Positions 6,496 to 62,887 of a stretch of DNA of 64,000 bases are shown piece by piece (within the stretch, counting starts at the first letter, position 1; each line of letters opens with the position of its first letter). The stretch lies in the sequence record PQ805429.1; one strand, written 5' to 3'. This DNA comes from Escherichia phage EK5. Made by a program: the position numbers and the translations under genes. The notes beneath the pieces are model-generated. The model was not told the origin of the DNA. It was given only the letters and a program-made list of their open reading frames with translations, and did not search any database.

Positions 6496-6780
6496 ATGAA
6501 TAAGTTAGCTATGGTACAGATTCGAGATACATACCCTAACCGCCCGGAGCAGAAACCGCGTACTTGGTCTTATCTGTTGGCTGAAAGTAAGACTATTGAC
6601 AAATACGCTGTAGGGATTGATGCTATTCCAACTAGTATCACATTGCTCCCTCACAAAACAGCCAGAACCCATGTGATGTTACGTGATAGTAAAGGTAAGT
6701 TTATCTCTTATCGTGATTCACGAATCAATAATGAAATTAAATCTGCTATGGAATTTTTGATGCCATTCCCAAGAGGTTGA
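6496..6780 (+). CDS. hypothetical protein, tandem paralog 2 of 2
   Basis: 94 aa; same conserved C-terminal block. Confidence 0.5.
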   Translation: MNKLAMVQIRDTYPNRPEQKPRTWSYLLAESKTIDKYAVGIDAIPTSITLLPHKTARTHVMLRDSKGKFISYRDSRINNEIKSAMEFLMPFPRG

Positions 6781-6783
6781 GTG

Positions 6784-6942
6784 ATGAAAGAATACATTTA
6801 CGTAGGACAGCGCTGGTTCGGCGATGAATGGGAAGGCGGATACAGCGTTGTGAAAGCTTTTAAGTCGGAAGAAGATGCCAAGTCATGGGTCTTAAAAGAC
6901 GACGTTGGCGAGAGAACTTACATTGAAGTAGAGGTGGAGTAG
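6784..6942 (+). CDS. small hypothetical protein
   Basis: 52 aa ORF below track cutoff, tightly packed between neighbours. Confidence 0.3.
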   Translation: MKEYIYVGQRWFGDEWEGGYSVVKAFKSEEDAKSWVLKDDVGERTYIEVEVE

Positions 6943-6943
6943 G

Positions 6944-7357
6944 ATGCCATTACCAGCTAGACACCAAAACCGTTTCTTAGTTCTAAAGTGGGATGATATC
7001 GAAATGAATCTCACTGAACATGAACTAGATTTGTTCCATGAATTATTATCAGAGATTCGCTCTGGTATTCCTGAACGTCAGTATGTGGTTATCAGCGATA
7101 AGCACCCTCAAGAATTTGAAGAAGCTTGGGGTATGAAACTGGCTTACATCCAAAGAGCTATTCGAGAAAGAGAAGAAGTTGCTAATCAAAGAGTTGTGGC
7201 TCATCTAGTCAGAGAACAGCCTCGTGAAGTTAGGTCTTCTTATTCTCCATCTACTTGGGCACAAACAAATGCAGCAATGAGAACATATGCTGTTGATTCC
7301 ACATCCTTGGATGTAGTAGAAGATAACCAAGCATTTACAGATTTACTTTACCAATAA
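6944..7357 (+). CDS. hypothetical protein
   Basis: 137 aa ORF immediately upstream of the polymerase gene. Confidence 0.45.
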   Translation: MPLPARHQNRFLVLKWDDIEMNLTEHELDLFHELLSEIRSGIPERQYVVISDKHPQEFEEAWGMKLAYIQRAIREREEVANQRVVAHLVREQPREVRSSYSPSTWAQTNAAMRTYAVDSTSLDVVEDNQAFTDLLYQ

Positions 7358-45606: not shown

Positions 45607-47148
45607 TTAGTAGCTCTGATTCCATCTGCTTACGTTTGCCTCATACAGAGAAGCACTTCCGTAGCTAACGTCATGCTTAGAGCGACCACGATGTGTAACA
45701 GAGCACGCTGAATAGCGCATTGCATCCATTAAGTCATCATGTTCTTTAATAATCTTACCAACCTTACGGTGATATCTAGCTTTCTCTTCGAATAGCTTAG
45801 CGTTAGCGGCTGTGTTAAAGACTTTAAAGCGTCCACTCATCATTCTTTCTCGGATATCTGTGATTCCCGGTTCTACAAAGAAGTTCTTTTTACCATCCAT
45901 TCCAATTTTGTTGTAGAAGGTCTCACTCTGTACGTTAACTCCTGCATTCTTATAGAATTGAGCAACAGATGAACCACTACCTTTCTCAATATTGTCCGCA
46001 TCGTGCGGTAGGATGACAGGAATCCACTGACCACGACCATTAATAGCTGGAGCATGATACACTGGAGTAAAGCCACCTTCTTTATATGAGTCGTAAACAT
46101 AGATAGTATCCGTGTTTGCGTCGTAAGCTGTCCAAACAGCAGCAGTTGGGTGATCAATACCAATATCAATTGCACAGACACGTTTCCACGTATCAGGAAT
46201 TTCGAATGGTTCACATTTAATTGTGTCATCCGATACATCATATATCAAACCACTTCCTAACAATGGCATACCTTTCGAACGCATCTCTAACTGCCACGCT
46301 GGAATACCTTCAGTCATATCTTTTATATCTTGGTCAGTGATATGTCCACCTAGGTCTGCATGAGCATCCCACCAAGAAGCATTCTGGAAATATAGAGAAC
46401 CTGTGTTCTCATCCCCTTCACCTTTCATAAATTTATCTACCAGTTCAGTTAAACCGTTCTCTGGTGTAGCTGTAATTGTAACTAGACCTTTAGTTGTGAG
46501 TGTACGTGTGACGCACTGTGCGAATATAGCCATAGACTCGTATGGATCTTCTTCGTCTAACCAAATGTAGTCAACTGTTGCACCCATCAATGTGTGTTCA
46601 CCCTGTTGGGTTGAACGGAATTCTAATGTACTTAAACCGTCAAACTCTCCTCTTTCATTTTGATGTTTGATTTGTACGATTTGAAGTTTGTTACCATCTC
46701 GTTCTATCGTGTCAATGACGATAGCATCACGAGGAATGACACCTGTCCCCAATAAATTTGTATCCTTTCCGATAGGTGTACCAAACAATTCCTTTTGCAA
46801 TACTTTCCTTGTGGAATCCCCTGTAATACCAACTGCCCATGCTAAGATAGGTCTTTTAAATTTATATCCTGTCCACCAAGTTGGGTAGCGACCTGTGACA
46901 TGACAAGCAAACTCGTATGCCTCGCTATAAGATTTACCAACACGGTTCGCTGCACACAAGAATCTAAAGCGATGCTTCAATCCTGCTGCATAAAATTTCT
47001 TTTGGAAGTCATACGCCTTGAAAGACAAAATCTTATTATACTTCCTCCATTGGTCGCGCTCTTTCAACATATTCAATAGTGCTTTCTTTTCCTCTACACT
47101 AAGATTGTTACCAGTTAGAGCTTCATAAATTTGTTTATCTAATGACAT
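45607..47148 (-). CDS. terminase large subunit
   Basis: 513 aa; Walker A CAANRVGKSYS, Walker B IWLDEED, C-terminal nuclease-like CAIDIGIDHPTAAV. Confidence 0.85.
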   Translation of the reverse strand: MSLDKQIYEALTGNNLSVEEKKALLNMLKERDQWRKYNKILSFKAYDFQKKFYAAGLKHRFRFLCAANRVGKSYSEAYEFACHVTGRYPTWWTGYKFKRPILAWAVGITGDSTRKVLQKELFGTPIGKDTNLLGTGVIPRDAIVIDTIERDGNKLQIVQIKHQNERGEFDGLSTLEFRSTQQGEHTLMGATVDYIWLDEEDPYESMAIFAQCVTRTLTTKGLVTITATPENGLTELVDKFMKGEGDENTGSLYFQNASWWDAHADLGGHITDQDIKDMTEGIPAWQLEMRSKGMPLLGSGLIYDVSDDTIKCEPFEIPDTWKRVCAIDIGIDHPTAAVWTAYDANTDTIYVYDSYKEGGFTPVYHAPAINGRGQWIPVILPHDADNIEKGSGSSVAQFYKNAGVNVQSETFYNKIGMDGKKNFFVEPGITDIRERMMSGRFKVFNTAANAKLFEEKARYHRKVGKIIKEHDDLMDAMRYSACSVTHRGRSKHDVSYGSASLYEANVSRWNQSY

Positions 47149-51681: not shown

Positions 51682-51757
51682 GCTTAATCTTTCTCCTGTA
51701 TTGTGCCGTAGTCATGCCTATGGTCATAATTTATCTGATTCTCTAATCCTTCCTGTA

Positions 51758-51784
51758 AGCCTCCTAGTGAGGCTTTTCTCTTTT
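51758..51784 (+). terminator. rho-independent terminator
   Basis: AGCCTC-CTAGT-GAGGCT followed by TTTCTCTTTT. Confidence 0.65.
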
Positions 51785-52589
51785 ATGAGGTGATTGTATG
51801 CCTTACTCCCTTTTAGCTCGTTGTGATGCGTTTTAGGCCGCTAAATATCGCTTTACAAGCCGTTTTCTATGATGTATCGCGTGCGCCTGCTCTTTTACCT
51901 TCCTATAGTGAAAAAGTTTAAAATAATTTGCTTTACCCTATTGCAACCTCATCTGATTAGCGTATACTTCATTTCATCGGGTACGATGTAAAACATACAA
52001 GGCAAGAAATTGCCCCGCTCTTTAAAAATATGATTTGTCTTACGGGTGGCGGCGACGTCATTACTATAAGGCGCTCAGTTAATCGGTAGAATTGATTCCT
52101 GATTCATACGTGACGCAGGCGGACAATAAGCAATATCAATAAGCCTTATTTGTTCGATACTTTCAAAAGATTAATGCTTGAAAGCGCACTAGATTCCCTG
52201 AAAGACAAATCAGACTTATCATCTTGCCCTTTCGCATAGATTCACGCGAGATAAGGGAAAGGAATTAAAAGAAGATGATAAAAAGAGTTGCAAACGTGGT
52301 TAAAGTAGTCCATACTAACCACAAGTTAGCAAAACATCGCTAACTAGTTCCCAAATCAACGTATCGCGGGAAAGGTGGCACATAGTGCAGCGATTAGTTC
52401 AGGTGTAGGCGGCCTGTTAATGAATCAGTAAGCCTTCAATGTGACAGTGATTAGCAGACACTTTAAAAGGCTAAACGCTCTTTAACAATATGAGTCATAA
52501 GTTAAGCCTCACCGCTTAATCTTCAATCAAATAAAGCTGATTGATATATCCTCCCAATAGCGGGAACGACGAAAAAGATTAAAAAGCGG

Positions 52590-52618
52590 TTGACAGCGAA
52601 AACAACATGATTCATAAT
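52590..52618 (+). promoter_or_regulatory. near-consensus sigma70 promoter inside ORF-free region
   Basis: TTGACA-17 nt-CATAAT. Confidence 0.5.
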
Positions 52619-53541
52619 GAGCACTCACTAAGCAAATCATCGCTTCAGTGAAAAGCGTAACAACGGCTAACAGTTGCATAGTGTGAGAAAGCACACTGAT
52701 AGATTTACCGCTCTTTAATAATTTAAACATTCTCCTATATCGGTTGAATATGCTTGATGATAATAACCATCGGAAAGCATACCAGATAAAACGGCGTAAA
52801 ACTCCCTAAATTATCAGGGTAAACAGTTTTACATTCCCTTACTGGAAACGTCACCATTGATAAACGGATTCATTGAGTACACGCAAAGACTTGAGCTAAT
52901 CGCCCACGGTTAAGGGTAGCGGCGGTCATTGCTAACACGGTGCTACAGTGAAAGAAGTTAATCAGGGTAGGCAATCCCGACGAATTAACGCTCAATTGAG
53001 AGCGGCGGGGAGTGGTTAAAAAGTGGCAAATTGCTATTTAACAATAAGGTTTAGTGTGAACGTTTACAATGTGAACGGCTTGAGATTCATCTTATGATGA
53101 AAGTACATAGTCGGTTTATGTAGTAAACTTGCCGAAAGATATAAAACGTCGGAACATTAGACGGTCAATGACTCTTTCGCAATAGTATCCCGTAGTGGGC
53201 GATGACTAGCGATTGAGAGTTGATATAAAAGGATAGGCGAGAGCGAAAGCAAAGTAAACGATATTGCCGACGGTTACAATAACGTAACTAATTAGAGTCG
53301 GACGCACTGCCTTATTGTGATGATTGATCATCGCTATCAGGTCGGCTTCGTTTATAGCGACTAATTAAAGATACCAGATGAAACATCACGGATAAGGGGG
53401 CGGCAAGGTTAACTCCTGATAAGACCGCCCCGCTTACCTATAACTACTTAACAACGAGTGGTTATAGTTAAGTTAATAGTGACTTAAACAAGCTCATAGA
53501 GAGCGGGGCAATAGCGCCCTTACAATTGAAAGGTGAATATT

Positions 53542-55901: not shown

Positions 55902-55928
55902 TATGTCTACTGTATAGGAATCTATGAA

Positions 55929-56609
55929 ATGAAAGCAATTGTATTATCCTCAATCCTAGCTCTGTCCATAATGGCATCGCCTGTTTTTGCTAAAAGTGGA
56001 AACAATGGCAATGGCAATGGAGGTTGTGGTGTAGGTCAATCTACCAATGGTTGCGGTATCGGAGATTGGTTTAAAGGTGAAAAAGGTGATCAGGGAGAGA
56101 AAGGCGACACTGGCGCTAATGGCATTGATGGTAAAGATGGCATTGATGGAGAACAAGGCGCTCAAGGTGAAAAAGGTGATTCTGGTGCAGATGGTAAGAA
56201 AGGCGAAACTGGCCTAACTGGTGCAGCAGGTTTGAATGGCGTTGACGGATTAAATGGCAAAAACGGTAAAGATGCAGATATGTCTGCCGTTAATGCTAAC
56301 GCCAAATCCATCAAAGCTCTGGAACAATCCACCAATAAACGTTTTGCTTCTTTGCAAAAACAAGTAGACCGTAACCGTGATCATGCCTCTGCTGGTATTT
56401 CTGGCGTGGCTGCAATGGCTAACATCCCGCAAGTAAGTCAAGGATCTGCTTTCTCTGTTGGTGCTGGGGTAGGTGCTTACGATGGTGAATCTGCTCTTGC
56501 TATTGGTGTTAGTGCTCGTTTCAATGAAAACTTAGTAACTAAAGCATCAGTGGCAATGACTTCAGAGAGTGACGCTGTTCTGGGCGCTGGTGTAAGTTAC
56601 GAGTGGTAA
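55929..56609 (+). CDS. collagen-repeat protein with YadA-type C-terminal anchor (trimeric autotransporter-like)
   Basis: Start moved to ATG 55929; signal peptide MKAIVLSSILALSIMASPVFA; ~22 uninterrupted G-X-Y triplets; coiled-coil neck; C-terminus ...ALAIGVSARFNENLVTKASVAMTSESDAVLGAGVSYEW matches the YadA anchor ending. Confidence 0.7.
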   Translation: MKAIVLSSILALSIMASPVFAKSGNNGNGNGGCGVGQSTNGCGIGDWFKGEKGDQGEKGDTGANGIDGKDGIDGEQGAQGEKGDSGADGKKGETGLTGAAGLNGVDGLNGKNGKDADMSAVNANAKSIKALEQSTNKRFASLQKQVDRNRDHASAGISGVAAMANIPQVSQGSAFSVGAGVGAYDGESALAIGVSARFNENLVTKASVAMTSESDAVLGAGVSYEW

Positions 56610-57308: not shown

Positions 57309-57605
57309 ATGACTTTAGAAGTATATAAATTCCTTTTTGTAAGCTGTTTAACTATCAGCGTTCTAGGATTTATTGTTCTCAGAAACAAAGCAGCAAGCTG
57401 GGAAAGAATGTATAAATCCCTAGTTCGAGTGGATGAGATGTATAACGAGAAGGTTAAAGTAACACTCAACGATCTTATTATGCAAGTTGAAGACAGAAAC
57501 AAACGTCTTCAGAACCTCAATCATGAAGTGTTGCGACTTGCTCGTGCTAATGAAGACTTACGAGTGGCTATTGCTAAGCAGCAGGAGATTAACAGTGAAA
57601 GTTAA
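57309..57605 (+). CDS. membrane-anchored coiled-coil protein (possible holin or spanin-like lysis accessory)
   Basis: 98 aa; TM helix FLFVSCLTISVLGFIVL then charged helical region; next to hydrolase gene. Confidence 0.35.
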   Translation: MTLEVYKFLFVSCLTISVLGFIVLRNKAASWERMYKSLVRVDEMYNEKVKVTLNDLIMQVEDRNKRLQNLNHEVLRLARANEDLRVAIAKQQEINSES

Positions 57606-57831
57606 TATTAAATCTGATTATACAATGCTTCGATTAAATAACATGAAGCCGGGCGTTCTGTTTGAGCGTAAAGAATCCCTTTACATTAGAACCGACACAT
57701 TGTACGCAGACAATTATGTCAACTGTGTTGATGTGGTAACTGGAAAGCTCATGCCTTTTAAACGGGATGAAGTCTGCCAAGTACGTAGTGATCTCCACAT
57801 AACTAACATAGGGGCTAAGGATGAAGATTAA
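57595..57831 (+). CDS. small protein, paralog family member
   Basis: GTG start after AGGAG; shares family pattern with 57821, 58079, 60721, 62146, 62394, 62642. Confidence 0.4.
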   Translation: MKVNIKSDYTMLRLNNMKPGVLFERKESLYIRTDTLYADNYVNCVDVVTGKLMPFKRDEVCQVRSDLHITNIGAKDED

Positions 57832-58078
57832 TCTTGAAGTAAATGAACCGTCTTTGTGTGTTGGTGATCTCAAACTTGGAGATGTATTCCAAATCAGGGA
57901 AACACGAGCAGATTTCTACATGGTTGTTCAGCTATTTACCTCACAGATTGAAGAGACCAAGCCTTCTGATGGTGGTTGTGTCGTCCTTAGTCTAACAAAT
58001 AAGCAAGTCCTTAAGCTCAGCTCGAAAAGCAAGGTTGTTCTTCTTCATGATGTTGTTATTACTAACAAGGGTAAGTGA
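57821..58078 (+). CDS. small protein, paralog family member
   Basis: 85 aa; MKI..., L..GDVF motif. Confidence 0.45.
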   Translation: MKINLEVNEPSLCVGDLKLGDVFQIRETRADFYMVVQLFTSQIEETKPSDGGCVVLSLTNKQVLKLSSKSKVVLLHDVVITNKGK

Positions 58079-58297
58079 ATGGAAATTAAAGTAGTTGATT
58101 ATCCTAAATATGCAAATGCAGAAGACGTTAAAAGTGGTGATGTTTTCTCTTACGATAGACGTTTCTGGCTGATGTTAGAAGATAAAACTCCTGATGGTTT
58201 GTGTAAGGCCGCCGATCTGAACAGTGGTTCTGTTGAAGTCTTCGGTTTATCAACCACTGTTATGCCCCGTCCTGATCTGTGTTTATCCCAAAAGTAA
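58079..58297 (+). CDS. small protein, paralog family member
   Basis: 72 aa; V.SGDVF motif, LNSGSVE. Confidence 0.45.
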   Translation: MEIKVVDYPKYANAEDVKSGDVFSYDRRFWLMLEDKTPDGLCKAADLNSGSVEVFGLSTTVMPRPDLCLSQK

Positions 58298-58305
58298 CAT
58301 CGACT

Positions 58306-58408
58306 TATAGCCCTTGTGTTTATCAGAGGGCTATGTGAGGGTGTTCCTCATTAACTTATTAATTCAGGCATATGCCACACCGCTAGGGAGAGCTTGCTCG
58401 AACATCCG
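58306..58408 (+). repeat. conserved intergenic element, copy A
   Basis: Hairpin TATAGCCCT...AGGGCTATGTGAG plus GCTAGGGAGAG...CTCGAACATCCG; second copy at 63584-63693. Confidence 0.5.
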
Positions 58409-58785
58409 GTGTTAGACTAAAACCTGTCAATTTTCGAAAGACTTTCTGATATGTAGGGGTACATATTGGTTTGGGATTCAGGAGACTTCCTAGGGGTAGG
58501 GAGTCTTCACCAGTTGGAATAAGAGATAGCTCTAGAACCTGAACTCTTAGGCAGAGAGGGTCGGCAATGAGTACGCGGTCAGAATTAGTCTACTGACTAG
58601 AGCTATCCCTTATATTAACTGGCAATAATGCCTCCACTAACAAAGAGAGATAGGTATGAAAGTATCAACCAAACGTATGAACCGCCCTGAACGTATGGAT
58701 GTAGTAGCTAATGGTGCTCTGAAACTGGAAGGCTTTTGGATTCATGCAATGTCAGCCATCCGTAACAAACAAGGCAATTGGACCT

Positions 58786-58995
58786 ATGCCGGTTAAGACA
58801 ACCCATGTGATAGGTATGCGAGAGATCATTCGCATTGCCTTGATGGAACACACAGAACGCAACATTCAACTAACGCAAATCTCTAAGTGTCTTAATTGCT
58901 CAAGAGATGTGGCTAAGGAGTTGATGTTTGCATTCCTGTATAATGCAGAAGACGAAATGCTACAGAATCATCTGATTCGTTGTGTTAGTCAATAA
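58786..58995 (+). CDS. hypothetical protein (possible HTH)
   Basis: Start moved to ATG 58786; terminator follows. Confidence 0.4.
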   Translation: MPVKTTHVIGMREIIRIALMEHTERNIQLTQISKCLNCSRDVAKELMFAFLYNAEDEMLQNHLIRCVSQ

Positions 58996-58999
58996 AGAG

Positions 59000-59029
59000 A
59001 GGCTGCCTTCGGGCGGCCTTTGTTGTTTT
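59000..59029 (+). terminator. rho-independent terminator
   Basis: AGGCTGCC-TTCG-GGCGGCCT followed by TTGTTGTTTT. Confidence 0.7.
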
Positions 59030-59073
59030 AATTAAGGGTCAGCTCTTACTTAAACTAACAAGAGGAAGCTAAA

Positions 59074-59250
59074 ATGTCTAAGCAAACAATCAAACATACG
59101 CAAGCTGGTTACTCTTATGTCAACTCCCCTTGCTGTGGTGCTCGTGTCAATCTGGTTAAGGAAGAGGTTCGTATCGTTCAGCGTGGCGCTACTGTTGTTC
59201 GCTCATGCTGTGTCTGTGGTAATGACATTTTTATCAAAGGTAAAGTATGA
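59074..59250 (+). CDS. small zinc-ribbon-like protein
   Basis: 58 aa; SPCCG...SCCVCG. Confidence 0.35.
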   Translation: MSKQTIKHTQAGYSYVNSPCCGARVNLVKEEVRIVQRGATVVRSCCVCGNDIFIKGKV

Positions 59251-59498
59251 AAAACTTTCAAGCTGCACCGATAACTAAAGTGATCGAAGTTGATGATGTG
59301 ATGATGACTGTTCCTCTGAACACTCGTTACATTGCAATTGACAGGATGGGTTATGTATGGGCTTGGAAGATTAAGCCTAGCTATAACGCACTGTTCGACG
59401 AGTTTGTTTGTACTGGTATTTACAGTCCTACATTCTTGGGTTTATTTGGAGAGTTCGAAGGTCAGTATAAAATCATCACTCTCCCTGCTTGTGCTTGA
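59247..59498 (+). CDS. hypothetical protein
   Basis: 83 aa, ATGA overlap. Confidence 0.4.
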   Translation: MKNFQAAPITKVIEVDDVMMTVPLNTRYIAIDRMGYVWAWKIKPSYNALFDEFVCTGIYSPTFLGLFGEFEGQYKIITLPACA

Positions 59499-59505
59499 GG
59501 TTAAT

Positions 59506-59667
59506 ATGTTCAAGTGGCTAAAGCGTGTCTTTCATTGTCATGATTGGAAGATTATTAATACTCGCCCTCTGGTCTATACAGATTCGGATGGGAACAATGA
59601 CAAGGGCACACGTTACGTTATTCAGTGTAAGGTGTGTGGTGATGTTAGTCATCGTGATGTAATCTAA
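59506..59667 (+). CDS. small Cys/His protein, paralog 1 of 3
   Basis: 53 aa; MFKWLKRVFHCHDW...CKVCG. Confidence 0.4.
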   Translation: MFKWLKRVFHCHDWKIINTRPLVYTDSDGNNDKGTRYVIQCKVCGDVSHRDVI

Positions 59668-59676
59668 GGAATCATT

Positions 59677-59841
59677 ATGATCAAATGGTTCAAACGCTTC
59701 TTTCATTTCCATGAGTGGGAAGATCTTCATACTTATGAACTGACGATCACAAATAAACTTACTGACAGAGAGCGACAAGGGTTGCGTATCTACTCTCGCT
59801 GTAAAGTGTGTGGTCTGCACAAGAAAACAGATCTGATCTAA
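59677..59841 (+). CDS. small Cys/His protein, paralog 2 of 3
   Basis: 54 aa; MIKWFKRFFHFHEW...CKVCG. Confidence 0.4.
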   Translation: MIKWFKRFFHFHEWEDLHTYELTITNKLTDRERQGLRIYSRCKVCGLHKKTDLI

Positions 59842-59849
59842 GGGGTGTT

Positions 59850-60059
59850 ATGTTCTTTCGTAAGAAAAAGCCCGAAGATTCTGGATGTAAACATGAGTGG
59901 GTGATCACTGAGAACCTACATATCACCCACGCTAAAGACACTCCGGTCGAGAGAAAAGAATCTCGTGTATCTCGTATCTGTAAACACTGTTTGAAAATAG
60001 AACAGCATAAAGTTCCCGGTCATATCGGTCACGATGTAGCCATTCGTATCTTTAGTTAA
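59850..60059 (+). CDS. small Cys/His protein, paralog 3 of 3
   Basis: Start moved to ATG 59850; CKHEW...CKHC. Confidence 0.4.
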   Translation: MFFRKKKPEDSGCKHEWVITENLHITHAKDTPVERKESRVSRICKHCLKIEQHKVPGHIGHDVAIRIFS

Positions 60060-60068
60060 ACAAATCTA

Positions 60069-60144
60069 GCACCCTTAGCTCAATGGACAGAGCAGCGACC
60101 TTCTAAGTCGTTGGTTACAGGTTCGAGTCCTGTAGGGTGCACCA
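60069..60144 (+). tRNA. tRNA-Arg (anticodon UCU)
   Basis: 7-bp acceptor stem GCACCCT/AGGGTGC, D-arm GCTC/GAGC, anticodon loop CTTCTAA, T-arm ACAGG-TTCGAGT-CCTGT, discriminator A and encoded CCA. Confidence 0.9.
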
Positions 60145-60163
60145 ATCAACGTAGGAGGTAGTT

Positions 60164-60463
60164 ATGAGTTGGGGTGGTGTAATATCCTTAATCTGTATCT
60201 TCCTTGTCTGTGTGGCCCTTACAGGCTGCGTACAGAGCCGTCCTGATGGATGGTGTGCAGTAGCAGTGGATGGTATTTGTGTATCTCGCTGGCATAAAGG
60301 TGAGAAGGTTCCTTCTGGTGAGATTGATATGCGCTGGAACGGAGCAACCTGCTCTAATGCTAACCCTTCTATCAACGAAGAGAAGTCTACGCCAGACAGT
60401 GTTGTGATTGATACAGCGTTGTGGTGTGGTGGCTCTACAGTTACCACTGGTAAGGAGTGGTAA
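60164..60463 (+). CDS. Cys-rich lipoprotein
   Basis: Signal peptide with lipobox LTGC; strong RBS AGGAGG; four additional Cys in mature part. Confidence 0.55.
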   Translation: MSWGGVISLICIFLVCVALTGCVQSRPDGWCAVAVDGICVSRWHKGEKVPSGEIDMRWNGATCSNANPSINEEKSTPDSVVIDTALWCGGSTVTTGKEW

Positions 60464-60464
60464 C

Positions 60465-60713
60465 ATGACAGCTCATTATTGGAATACAAAGAAGCTCCTT
60501 GAAGAGATGGCTGGAGTTAGTAGAGTACAGCTAATCTCTATGCTTCGAATGGATGCTCGCTCCTTACGCTTCCAAGTAAAGATTGGTAACTTCAGTGATG
60601 GCCTTTATTACACGCTGAAGGAAAGGATTAAGAAGACACACTTCATTATATATGGACTCAAACCGAGAACATATGTTAACTACATGTATTGGGATACATG
60701 CTACGATAATTGA
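60465..60713 (+). CDS. hypothetical protein
   Basis: Start moved to ATG 60465 after AAGGAG. Confidence 0.4.
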   Translation: MTAHYWNTKKLLEEMAGVSRVQLISMLRMDARSLRFQVKIGNFSDGLYYTLKERIKKTHFIIYGLKPRTYVNYMYWDTCYDN

Positions 60714-60720
60714 GGTTATT

Positions 60721-60942
60721 ATGAAACTAGACTCTAAGCAGTCACTTAAAACCGTTGAGCTGTCCAGCCTTCCAAACGGAAGTGTTTTTGGTCATGATAA
60801 ACACTTCTGGATTAAAACAGACATCATAAACGATGGATATATCACCTGTGTCAATCTTTGGAACGGCTCAGTGGATGGTTATCGCCCTAGCGCAAAGGTA
60901 GTCCCTCAACCTGATGCAAAGGCTGTAGGTTTAGTTTATTAG
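60721..60942 (+). CDS. small protein, paralog family member
   Basis: Start moved to ATG 60721; LPNGSVF, NLWNGSVD. Confidence 0.45.
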   Translation: MKLDSKQSLKTVELSSLPNGSVFGHDKHFWIKTDIINDGYITCVNLWNGSVDGYRPSAKVVPQPDAKAVGLVY

Positions 60943-60951
60943 GGAGTATGT

Positions 60952-61125
60952 ATGAGTTGTTTTGGTGGCGGTGAAGTAGATGACGATGATGACATGGAAT
61001 CCAACGGTACATGTCCTGATTGTGGATGTGAGACGTTTGATGGGGTGTCTGTTTATCCTGCCTGTAGTTACTCACCAGTGATCTGTAAAACATGTGGTGA
61101 TCAGCCGTGTGACCAATCTTGTTAA
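60952..61125 (+). CDS. small Cys-rich acidic protein
   Basis: 57 aa; CPDCGC...CKTCGDQPC. Confidence 0.35.
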   Translation: MSCFGGGEVDDDDDMESNGTCPDCGCETFDGVSVYPACSYSPVICKTCGDQPCDQSC

Positions 61126-61277
61126 GAGAATCTTATGACTGAAGAATTTTTAGAGTGGTTTGGGAACACCTTCAAAGATTATCTATTCTCTCCAGAAGAC
61201 TTTGAAGAACTGAAAACCTACACTTGGTTGGCTTGGAGAGATAGCCGACGAAAGTTGAACAAGTAAGAGATGATTAA

Positions 61278-61535
61278 ATGGGTTTACTTGATATTTTTAT
61301 CTCAGTTTACTTTATTGGAGTATTCCTTTCTGTCTTAGTGATGAAACTGCTATACAAGAAAGGTCTACTAAAAGGGGTCATTACAACAGGGTCTACCAGC
61401 TCTGAACCTGATGAGATGATGGTTGTTCTCTTAATTGTGTTGTGGCCTATCTCAATACTGTCAGGAGTTTTTTATCCAATAGGTTGGCTTCTGTTTAAAG
61501 CATATGATGCAGTTATGCATTTTATCTTTAAGTAA
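61278..61535 (+). CDS. small membrane protein (two TM helices)
   Basis: 85 aa; two hydrophobic segments. Confidence 0.45.
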   Translation: MGLLDIFISVYFIGVFLSVLVMKLLYKKGLLKGVITTGSTSSEPDEMMVVLLIVLWPISILSGVFYPIGWLLFKAYDAVMHFIFK

Positions 61536-61825
61536 TATCGTGAAGGATTCTTACGAGAGTCCTTTGAGATAGGACTTCAGATCTCCTATCAAACTAACAT
61601 TCATGTAACTAGCCCATAAGGGCGTTACCCTTTAATAACCCAGCCCACTAAGGGGGCGGGAGTTTAGTGCTGGATTAGCATAACGCTTATTCCTACAAAG
61701 GCAACCGATTGTTAGATCTTACATGCAATATTAACTAATAGGATAAGGGAGGATTCGTCCCCTCCCCCTATTTTATTGAATCTTTATCTAAGCAAGTCTT
61801 ATATAAACGTTTAATTGGAGGATGT

Positions 61826-62137
61826 ATGAAAGCACGAAGAACTATATGGACTCCGATGCAGATTGAAAATCTTCGGAGACTGATCAAAGAGTACTCGGTT
61901 CAAGAAGTTGCTCAGATTATGAATGTAACGGAGAATGCTGTTAACACAGCTTGCACTAAATTCGGAATATCAAGAGCTTCAATCCGAGTCAAGTGGTCTA
62001 AAGAAGAAGATCAGTTCCTTATCCGTAATGCCGGGTTTATGTCTATTCAGAGAATGGCTGACATGCTTGGTAGAAGTTATGCTGCTGTACAGAACAGGGC
62101 ATGTATGCACCTTAATATTAGCCTCAAACTTAAATAG
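61826..62137 (+). CDS. DNA-binding protein with two HTH-like repeats
   Basis: 103 aa; internal duplication W(T/S)..(Q/E)...L.......S..(E/R)(V/M)A..(M/L)...........(F/M)..IS. Confidence 0.45.
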   Translation: MKARRTIWTPMQIENLRRLIKEYSVQEVAQIMNVTENAVNTACTKFGISRASIRVKWSKEEDQFLIRNAGFMSIQRMADMLGRSYAAVQNRACMHLNISLKLK

Positions 62138-62145
62138 GAATCAAT

Positions 62146-62394
62146 ATGAAGATTACTCACAAGAAAGAAGAAGTGTCCACGGTTGATATCAACTCTCTTC
62201 CTAGTGGAGCAGTATTTAAATTCCCTGAGAGTTCTACTCTCTATGTCAAAGGGTCTGTGTCTGAAAGTCCTAATGTAACCGTTAACTCCGATCGAGCAAT
62301 CACTCTTCGTCTATCTGATGGTAACGTAACAGCCCCTTCTATCTGGTGCCGAGTTGTCCCTGTATCGGCAGAACTTTTGGTGGATAATACATAA
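62146..62394 (+). CDS. small protein, paralog family member
   Basis: 82 aa; LPSGAVF. Confidence 0.45.
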   Translation: MKITHKKEEVSTVDINSLPSGAVFKFPESSTLYVKGSVSESPNVTVNSDRAITLRLSDGNVTAPSIWCRVVPVSAELLVDNT

Positions 62395-62639
62395 TGAAAA
62401 TCATCCCAAAGAAAAAGGATAATACGGTTCGATTGGAAACAATCATTCCCGGAAACCCCTTCGTAGTTCAGCACGGAAGTGCCTCTCCTCAGTATTATAT
62501 GAGGGTTGAAAATGCTTCTGGTAACATCCGTATAGCCAGTGGCTGGGTTCCTGTAGTAAATCTATCCACAGGTGTACTGTCTGTTAAAGGTCTTGATGAT
62601 CAGGTAGAAATGATTCGTATGTCTGTGGTTCAGGAGTGA
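62394..62639 (+). CDS. small protein, paralog family member
   Basis: 81 aa; NLSTGVL. Confidence 0.45.
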   Translation: MKIIPKKKDNTVRLETIIPGNPFVVQHGSASPQYYMRVENASGNIRIASGWVPVVNLSTGVLSVKGLDDQVEMIRMSVVQE

Positions 62640-62641
62640 GA

Positions 62642-62887
62642 ATGAGCACGATACATATTAAGGTTCACAACAAAGAAAAAAAGAAACTCTTTGTTAAAGA
62701 TCTATCAACCGCTGACATCTTTACTTTAAAAGATGATGACAGTCAGGTCATTTATTTGATGATGCCTCTATCTGGTGGATATCGCAGAGCAGTTAATTTA
62801 GGTACAGGCGAACCTCGTCCTGTTTCTGACACTCTTGAAGTTGGCGAGAAGTTTGCCAAAGCAGAGATCATCTTAACTCCGATGTAA
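62642..62887 (+). CDS. small protein, paralog family member
   Basis: Start moved to ATG 62642; NLGTGEP. Confidence 0.45.
   Translation: MSTIHIKVHNKEKKKLFVKDLSTADIFTLKDDDSQVIYLMMPLSGGYRRAVNLGTGEPRPVSDTLEVGEKFAKAEIILTPM

Follow-up and report, generated by a model that had tools for sequence, protein, structure and literature searches.

A family of seven small paralogous proteins in the predicted early region of Escherichia phage EK5

Of all that is still unexplored in the genomes of virulent phages, small early proteins of unknown function make up the largest share, and most inhibitors of host processes and immunity found to date come from this group. A 64,000-nucleotide (nt) stretch of Escherichia phage EK5 (PQ805429.1), here called the window, contains seven short open reading frames (ORFs) on the + strand that an earlier note on this DNA had described as paralogs. 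Are these seven genes really one family, and what might such an array be for? Numbered in order of window position, they are F1 (57595-57831), F2 (57821-58078), F3 (58079-58297), F4 (60721-60942), F5 (62146-62394), F6 (62394-62639) and F7 (62642-62887). The analysis confirms that all seven ORFs belong to one paralogous family, which is unnamed in Pfam and of which we found no description in the searchable literature. With regard to function, the array is a well-defined and testable lead, not a demonstrated mechanism.

Seven genes, one family

Hidden Markov models (HMMs) were built with one paralog left out at a time, and used to search the complete set of 628 ORF segments from the six reading frames of the window. 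For six of the seven, the top non-training match was the paralog that had been left out, with E-values from 3e-4 to 4e-11 (F1, 3.3e-5; F2, 3.1e-4; F3, 4.9e-8; F4, 3.6e-11; F5, 3.0e-5; F6, 3.6e-6). F7, the most divergent of the seven, was not recovered among these segments (E 0.28, which is noise level), and its membership needs profile or structure evidence. When the profile of F7 orthologues was compared with the merged profile of the other six orthogroups, hhalign gave 92.6% (E 4.7e-7 over 48 columns), with an alignment that is in register and spans the L..G.VF and VNL.tG sequence blocks. Of 125 distant family members, 31 match the F7 group in the PHROG database (phrog_12612) as well as the PHROGs of other paralogs. 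The AlphaFold2 (AF2) models of F7 and F4 also have 30 of their top 50 matches in common in BFVD, an independently built viral structure library. These results, together with the leave-one-out matches, bear out by the alignment and HMM check proposed in the earlier note that the similarity goes beyond chance.

Compared pair by pair with shuffled sequences, F3-F4 (z 15), F1-F4 (9.4) and F4-F5 (8.5) stand out, F4 being the family's most central member; the remaining pairs are weak. The several pairwise comparisons that are insignificant singly, and the failure of F7 in the leave-one-out test, are what speaks for a resemblance due to chance or composition, or for ORFs that are not genuine genes. 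Against this stand leave-one-out E-values as low as 4e-11, the profile-profile and bridging PHROG matches that tie in F7, the retention of all seven ORFs in related phages with ratios of non-synonymous to synonymous substitution (dN/dS) of 0.05-0.26, the end-to-end match of about 1,300 representative clusters, and the confident predicted folds. Chance similarity is refuted, and we leave it virtually no probability.

The family had been put at a minimum of seven members. A broad family HMM finds exactly seven in the window, and thus there is no eighth copy. An eighth candidate at 46364-46567, which recurred as the top noise match in the leave-one-out searches (E 0.14-1.1), is not detected by the broad HMM and was rejected.

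The positions and + strand orientation of the genes were verified, and their layout as a triplet, a singleton (F4) and a second triplet follows from the ORF coordinates. The products are small, as claimed; their actual range is 72-85 amino acids (aa) rather than about 73-85 (F1, 78; F2, 85; F3, 72; F4, 73; F5, 82; F6 and F7, 81 each). A Shine-Dalgarno-like motif lies 6-10 nt upstream of every one of the seven genes; F1, which has a GTG start, is preceded by AGGAG at 8 nt. Translational coupling of neighbouring starts had also been proposed, and agrees with the spacing found: F2 starts with an 11-nt overlap with F1, F3 directly abuts the F2 stop (TGAATG), F6 overlaps the F5 stop by 1 nt (TAATG), and 2 nt separate the F6 stop from the F7 start. 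The F1 start likewise overlaps the preceding gene (57309-57605) by 11 nt. Of the three shared sequence blocks, MKI, L..G.VF and NL.(S/T)G, all are real but had been written too loosely. The N terminus is MK(I/V/L), with MEI in F3 and a five-residue extension in F7 as exceptions; the second block is hydrophobic-x-x-G-x-(V/I/P/L)-F with an invariant Phe; and the third is (V/L)-x-L-x-(S/T/N/D)-G.

Predicted fold and distribution of the family

Structure prediction, another of the checks that had been suggested, also came out in favour of a common family. The AF2 models of F4 (predicted local distance difference test score, pLDDT, 81; about 90 in the core) and F7 (pLDDT 86; predicted template modelling score, pTM, 0.76) are both predicted to be small five-stranded beta-barrels with the same core strand order, a comparison to be read with the caveat that the input alignment for F7 included other family members. 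The predicted barrel is highly bent and antiparallel, comprises about 50-60 residues, and by fold-class resemblance is predicted to be of the SH3/Tudor/KOW-like class. Long strands at the N terminus (residues 3-12) and C terminus (residues 66-79) flank it in the F7 model. From the secondary structure, rather than from contacts, these conserved strands probably pair into a ribbon beside the barrel; in one monomer model they are poorly ordered.

Across 202 family sequences, the conserved profile columns are L14, L17, G20, V22, F23, Y30, V45, L47, G50 and V61, together with the N-terminal M-K-I. The former are hydrophobic core or turn positions, and no conserved polar or catalytic residue is present among the 202 sequences. 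Insertions, length changes and high variability are found after beta1 and in the beta2-beta3 loop, where F2 has the longest insertion among the paralogs. The seven proteins are near neutral, with net charges from -3 to +2 and isoelectric points (pI) from 4.7 to 9.2, F3 being the most acidic (pI 4.7). With such net charges they do not present the acidic DNA-mimic surface of Ocr, ArdA or Arn. Judged by sequence, the Tudor-type aromatic cage of four or five conserved aromatics is also absent: just two aromatic positions are conserved family-wide, F23 and Y30 of the profile, and both are core-like.

Searches of the seven proteins against Pfam gave no SH3, KOW, Tudor, Sm/LSM or PWWP match at E <= 1, and the sole matches, to Anillin and DUF4453, were weak and unrelated. 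The SprT-like zincin family PF10263 (HExxH) was not matched, the seven proteins being single-domain barrels. The 125 distant relatives gave nothing meaningful in Pfam at E <= 0.01; the PDB contains no chain related by sequence; and the seven proteins had no meaningful match in NCBIfam and none among the PADLOC defence-system profiles. SH3-like, Tudor and KOW barrels of known structure (the L2 C-terminal domain, EF-P domain I, Spt5 KOW, the RNA polymerase-binding domains of UvrD, PcrA and CarD, VapX, FeoA and HspQ) are just 5-16% identical to the phage family and have no Pfam or PDB sequence match to it. They also lack the conserved N- and C-terminal strands, which are a feature of the phage proteins. 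Conservation confined to the core, variable loops and near-neutral charge point to a non-enzymatic binding scaffold. The sequences thus suggest that the paralogs may be such scaffolds rather than enzymes, generic nucleic-acid binders or acidic DNA mimics, the last two of which their near-neutral charge does not resemble.

In the PHROG database the seven proteins fall into six groups (F1 in 16423, F2 in 9955, F3 and F4 in 6570, F5 in 7832, F6 in 7431 and F7 in 12612), which match one another and are all annotated as 'unknown function'. The paralogs are full-length members of these PHROGs (E 1e-27 to 1e-48), and the family's set also takes in phrog_8365. As distant relatives match several of these PHROGs at once, the groups form one superfamily, which the database keeps split and without a function. 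Neither the unity of these PHROGs nor arrays of 3-11 copies were mentioned in the literature searched.

A word-indexed search returned 166 proteins, the top 120 of which were all orthologues of the seven paralogs and lie on contigs of about the size of a kuravirus genome. An exhaustive profile search of 1.84 billion cluster representatives gave 1,300 at E <= 1e-3, that is, about 1,300 clusters at 50% identity. Most of these representatives are 69-87 aa long and match end to end. Among the top 150 there are eleven tandem fusions of two domains, in which both halves score strongly. Two long matches, P0123 (1315 aa) and P0125 (904 aa), are cadherin-type or other repeat proteins in which many weak stretches were summed, and were rejected as false positives. 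A third is genuine: a protein from a Tenacibaculum metagenome-assembled genome (P0121) has five copies of the domain after its SprT-like zincin part. One to three copies are present in related SprT-like proteins encoded on Bacteroidota chromosomes, such as that of Aureibacter tunicatorum (P0280).

The SprT-fused repeats have the motifs LPxGxVF...Y...L in common with the phage family. They match the phage HMM over the barrel core, at 18-27 bits per repeat at most (in P0121 and its closest relatives) and more weakly in distant ones. They lack the N-terminal MKI strand, and have a basic KGEKRRTRY loop where the phage proteins vary. These Bacteroidota proteins are cellular, and their repeats are fused to a PF10263 protease domain, which is missing from the phage proteins. 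Their relationship to the paralogs is confined to the non-catalytic repeats at the C terminus.

Single-copy homologues were detected by the family HMM in three well-studied phages: N4 gp21 (E 1.4e-15), LUZ24 gp7 (E 4.9e-11) and PaP3 ORF65 (E 4.5e-8). All three are similar in size to the paralogs, lie in non-structural (early or middle) gene regions, and are also structural matches. Each of these genomes has one unannotated copy, in contrast to the array in kuraviruses. Foldseek matched same-sized 'uncharacterized' proteins in many virulent phages, whose hosts include Klebsiella, Proteus, Erwinia, Vibrio, Yersinia, Morganella, Serratia and others. Distant members were also located on three metagenomic phage contigs, with one or two copies per contig and in differing contexts. 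In one of them, a 50-kb Logan contig (SRR28250349), the member lies between a ProQ-like gene and genes resembling phosphoribosyl pyrophosphate synthetase and NAMPT; other genes on this contig are TerB, TerC and TerD, a KilA-N gene and one that resembles nSTAND/AAA ATPases. Searches of a phage collection by tblastn with single distant members proved too insensitive, with no match for P0128 and kuravirus-like phages alone for P0130.

In N4 the family member follows a lipoprotein gene (gp20-gp21), as F4 does in the window (60164-60942). A conserved pair was rejected, since the lipoproteins are unrelated. A conserved block of genes in the same order is found in the Pseudomonas phages PaP3 and LUZ24 (Bruynoghevirus) and in phiEco32, downstream of small early genes that include a family member. 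The block runs COOH-NH2 ligase, amidoligase, GFAT-like amidotransferase, RimK-like ligase, gamma-glutamyl cyclotransferase and primase-helicase. Some family members carry unsupported names in the records. Those of EcoN5 (2096-2353, 2356-2589 and 6740-6970 of the compared region) are called 'DNA helicase', 'endolysin' and 'endonuclease', and NJ01_132 (1479-1697 of the compared NJ01 region) is labelled 'putative two-domain glycosyltransferase'.

Variation, timing and possible role of the array

In all, 108 phage records match the window between 57000 and 63000, with nucleotide identities of 80-96%, nearly all of them from Escherichia and Shigella podophages of about 77 kb in the phiEco32/NJ01 group. 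By these matches the window phage is a Kuravirus (phiEco32/NJ01-like) of the subfamily Gordonclarkvirinae. For one of the seven paralogs, Escherichia phage ES17 has a counterpart with 100% identity. Family copies were counted with the family HMM in the syntenic region of ten Gordonclarkvirinae genomes, counts for fetched regions being lower bounds. They range from 3 to 11: three in LAMP, seven in the window, eight each in Bas91, MN05, phiEc_1 and EcoN5, nine each in phiEco32 and SGF2, ten in NJ01 and eleven in EP335. Two of the phiEco32 members, phi32_98 and phi32_109, have no counterpart in the window. F4, F6 and F7 are found in all ten genomes. F5 is the most variable slot, with alleles just 26-29% identical in Bas91 and SGF2 and none in LAMP.

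The median amino-acid identity to relatives is 85% for the family genes and 96% for their non-family neighbours (Mann-Whitney p 2e-6). Identities of the family genes are bimodal, at about 93-100% or about 54-69%; F6, for example, has two allele classes, at about 96-99% and about 68-72%. Allele classes at different slots are combined differently among genomes, and the common F6 allele co-occurs with F7 alleles of 54-100% identity. Purifying selection acts on every one of the seven genes (median dN/dS 0.05-0.26), with values of 0.10-0.21 for F1, 0.14-0.24 for F2, 0.05-0.15 for F3, 0.12-0.13 for F4, 0.12-0.24 for F5, 0.05-0.26 for F6 and 0.19-0.21 for F7. Synonymous divergence between divergent alleles is saturated (dS about 1-1.7). 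Saturation together with purifying selection indicates that the divergent alleles are old lineages exchanged by recombination, and not the product of rapid adaptive change.

The genes had been placed in an early block. The temporal classes used here come from papers on SU10 and 7-11, which cite the original work on phiEco32. According to these, the early class of phiEco32-like phages is transcribed by the host sigma70 RNA polymerase and comprises coding sequences (CDS) 69-125 in SU10, and the last promoter for the phage sigma factor (middle class) lies upstream of phiEco32 gene 68 (PMC4281155, PMC8948821). F1, F2 and F3 are orthologous to phi32_115, phi32_114 and phi32_113, F4 to phi32_104, and F5, F6 and F7 to phi32_97, phi32_96 and phi32_95. 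As far as those sources go, orthology puts all seven genes in the sigma70-transcribed early class, in keeping with the setting proposed. The SU10 counterparts, identified via SGF2 cross-references, are CDS 96-98, 102 and 111-113. They are absent from the 34 proteins detected in concentrated preparations of that phage. This speaks against a place in the virion, although such negative evidence is weak for proteins this small.

We favour a reading of the array to which we give somewhat less than an even chance: that it is a set of early, non-structural, non-enzymatic and recombining accessory binders, most likely of host proteins, which act via their variable loops. The seven genes would be a lineage-specific expansion of a widespread, uncharacterised phage protein family, each encoding a stand-alone, non-enzymatic five-stranded barrel of about 75 aa with a ribbon of terminal strands. 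Transcribed early by the host sigma70 RNA polymerase in translationally coupled clusters, they would act stoichiometrically by binding host macromolecules, most likely proteins, and do so with the variable loops that lie at one end of the barrel. Targets would differ from paralog to paralog or from allele to allele, and the array would amount to a set of accessory binders for interaction with the host (takeover or counter-defence), all on a single scaffold. Binding through the loops, host or defence proteins as targets, and targets specific to each paralog are what we infer.

A host-takeover or anti-defence role, as the earlier note had supposed, is plausible, and is compatible with the scaffold-like appearance of the proteins, the range of copy number, the shuffling of alleles under purifying selection, the absence of the SU10 counterparts from phage preparations and the resistance of the phage group. 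In the BASEL study, Gordonclarkvirinae were remarkably resistant to restriction-modification and to the other defence systems tested, with no modification pathway or inhibitor known (PMC11990801). Ocr and ArdA DNA mimics, Tad2/DUF2829, LUZ24 Mip and phiEco32 gp79 are small early proteins that act by binding, the mode proposed for the paralogs. Searches of Pfam, NCBIfam and PADLOC gave no sequence match that would link them to the paralogs, which are not acidic as the DNA mimics are. The family is also distinct from LUZ24 gp4 (Mip) and from gp79, the gene for which lies in another part of the phiEco32 genome. Fitness data from CRISPRi-ART on PTXU04 were considered as a lead and rejected, as PTXU04 is not a kuravirus (92 CDS, including a 2,198-aa polyvalent protein).

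The sole experimental datum for any family member agrees with binders that are not overtly toxic. When 13 early proteins of LUZ24, gp7 among them, were expressed one by one in Pseudomonas aeruginosa, four inhibited growth or biofilm formation, and gp7 was not one of these (PMC4635203). This speaks against toxic shut-off of the host, and has no bearing either way on anti-defence. Several observations weigh against the accessory-binder reading. The authors of the BASEL study suggest that DNA modification may underlie the restriction resistance of the group (PMC11990801). The seven proteins have no match to a known anti-defence or host-takeover protein in Pfam, NCBIfam, PADLOC or PHROGs. Binding of RNA or DNA is very common among barrels of this fold class, and a basic loop is present in the cellular SprT fusions. 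The family structures are predictions, with that of F7 subject to the alignment caveat given above. Among the seven genes, dN/dS gives no gene-wide positive selection, and together with the age of the alleles this means that there is no direct signature of an arms race. Finally, the LAMP clade retains just three copies.

The chief alternative, which we consider unlikely but worth weighing, is that the paralogs are nucleic-acid-binding regulators, with Sm-, KOW-, Tudor- or L2-like barrels that modulate phage or host expression early in infection as translational regulators, RNA chaperones or factors on transcription complexes. The top structural matches fit this, as they are barrels associated with RNA or DNA: the L2 C-terminal domain, EF-P domain I, Spt5 KOW and a PWWP-single-stranded DNA complex, as well as the RNA polymerase-binding Tudor-like domains of UvrD, PcrA and CarD. 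So does the fusion of one to five copies of the domain, with its basic KGEKRRTRY loop, to Bacteroidota SprT-like zincins, since proteases of the SprT/Spartan type are DNA-dependent, as established for the eukaryotic enzymes. Phages like phiEco32 moreover remodel host RNA polymerase extensively (gp79, gp36; PMC12276001). The neutral charge of the paralogs argues the other way, as does the lack of conserved basic or aromatic surface positions.

We rate lower still an assembly of the paralogs, in particular of coupled neighbours, into dimers or a larger complex with a single joint function and no separate targets. Translational coupling favours equimolar synthesis of neighbours, the two-domain fusions among the top 150 matches are a 'Rosetta-stone' hint of two copies side by side, and terminal strands that are poorly ordered in a monomer model could pair between subunits. 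Copy number nevertheless varies from 3 to 11, a single copy suffices in N4, LUZ24 and PaP3, and alleles at adjacent slots reassort freely and without co-variation, which is unexpected for obligate partners. Least probable among the functional alternatives is that the paralogs are growth-inhibiting shut-off proteins, each of which inactivates an essential host process. The non-inhibitory LUZ24 gp7 stands against it, and a variable copy number, with most copies lost in LAMP, is a misfit with core shut-off functions.

Within the favoured reading of accessory binders, a more specific version is doubtful, and no more probable than nucleic-acid binding: that the array is a counter-defence repertoire on one SH3-like scaffold, each paralog or allele of which neutralises a different immune protein or infection-limiting host factor. 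If this were true, shuffling of 3-11 cassettes would tune the hosts on which a phage plates, and would help to explain how Gordonclarkvirinae resist nearly all tested defence systems without a known inhibitor. Single-copy inhibitors on the same scaffold would then be expected in N4-like phages, Bruynoghevirus and many other virulent phages, and the scaffold would be derived from, or common to, a domain with which cellular SprT-like proteases recognise their targets.

Neither the fold class nor the general notion that phages make small early effectors is new. What does appear to be new is that the PHROGs form a unity, that the terminal strands are conserved, that the family is linked to SprT-like proteins, and that Gordonclarkvirinae have an array of 3-11 copies with shuffled alleles. 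At least seven separate PHROGs of 'unknown function' are joined in one superfamily with a predicted fold and a cellular, SprT-fused counterpart. Its members occur in tractable model phages, namely N4, LUZ24 and BASEL kuraviruses that infect K-12, such as Bas91. As the family behaves in kuraviruses like an array of variable cassettes kept under purifying selection, it provides a small, concrete set of genes for the question of defence resistance. Whatever its function, the family is a large gap in Pfam that is worth filling.

Neighbouring genes and sequence features

The window has a GC content of about 41% and a single tRNA gene, tRNA-Arg(TCT), at 60069-60144; an Rfam scan of the window found no family besides this tRNA. 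Upstream of the early genes, about 1.85 kb (51682-53532) is without a plausible ORF. It contains the region's best match to a sigma70 promoter, TTGACA-17-CATAAT at 52590-52618, and CGCTCTTTAAnAAT occurs in three exact copies on the + strand, at 52016, 52476 and 52709, where 0.14 would be expected by chance. The interval is probably the multi-promoter early spacer described for SU10 and phiEco32.

Also in the early block, 55923-56609 (+) encodes a protein that begins with a segment resembling a signal peptide, and that combines collagen triple-helix repeats (PF01391, E 3e-9) with a YadA-type outer-membrane anchor (PF03895, E 2e-19); it resembles a miniature trimeric autotransporter. Its phiEco32 orthologue, phi32_119, is annotated 'tail protein', and the gene is found in just two of nine compared relatives. 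The gene that overlaps F1 (57309-57605) encodes a 98-aa protein with a hydrophobic N-terminal segment and no Pfam match, whose orthologues in phiEco32 and Bas91 carry the unsupported label 'DNA helicase'.

Between the two triplets lies a second trio of small tandem paralogs, at 59506-59667, 59677-59841 and 59850-60059 (+), encoding 53, 54 and 69 aa. Their products have an N-terminal M(F/I)KW..R.FH.H(D/E)W in common, together with a zinc-ribbon-like C..CG near the C terminus, and no Pfam match. The alleles of this trio are likewise bimodal between related phages, at about 93-100% or about 39-56% identity. Directly upstream of the F5-F7 triplet, 61826-62137 (+) encodes a 103-aa protein with a match to sigma70 region 4/helix-turn-helix (PF08281, E 1.6e-7). 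It is called 'D5-like transcriptional regulator' in relatives, and is 89-100% conserved among them, with 63% in phiEco32.

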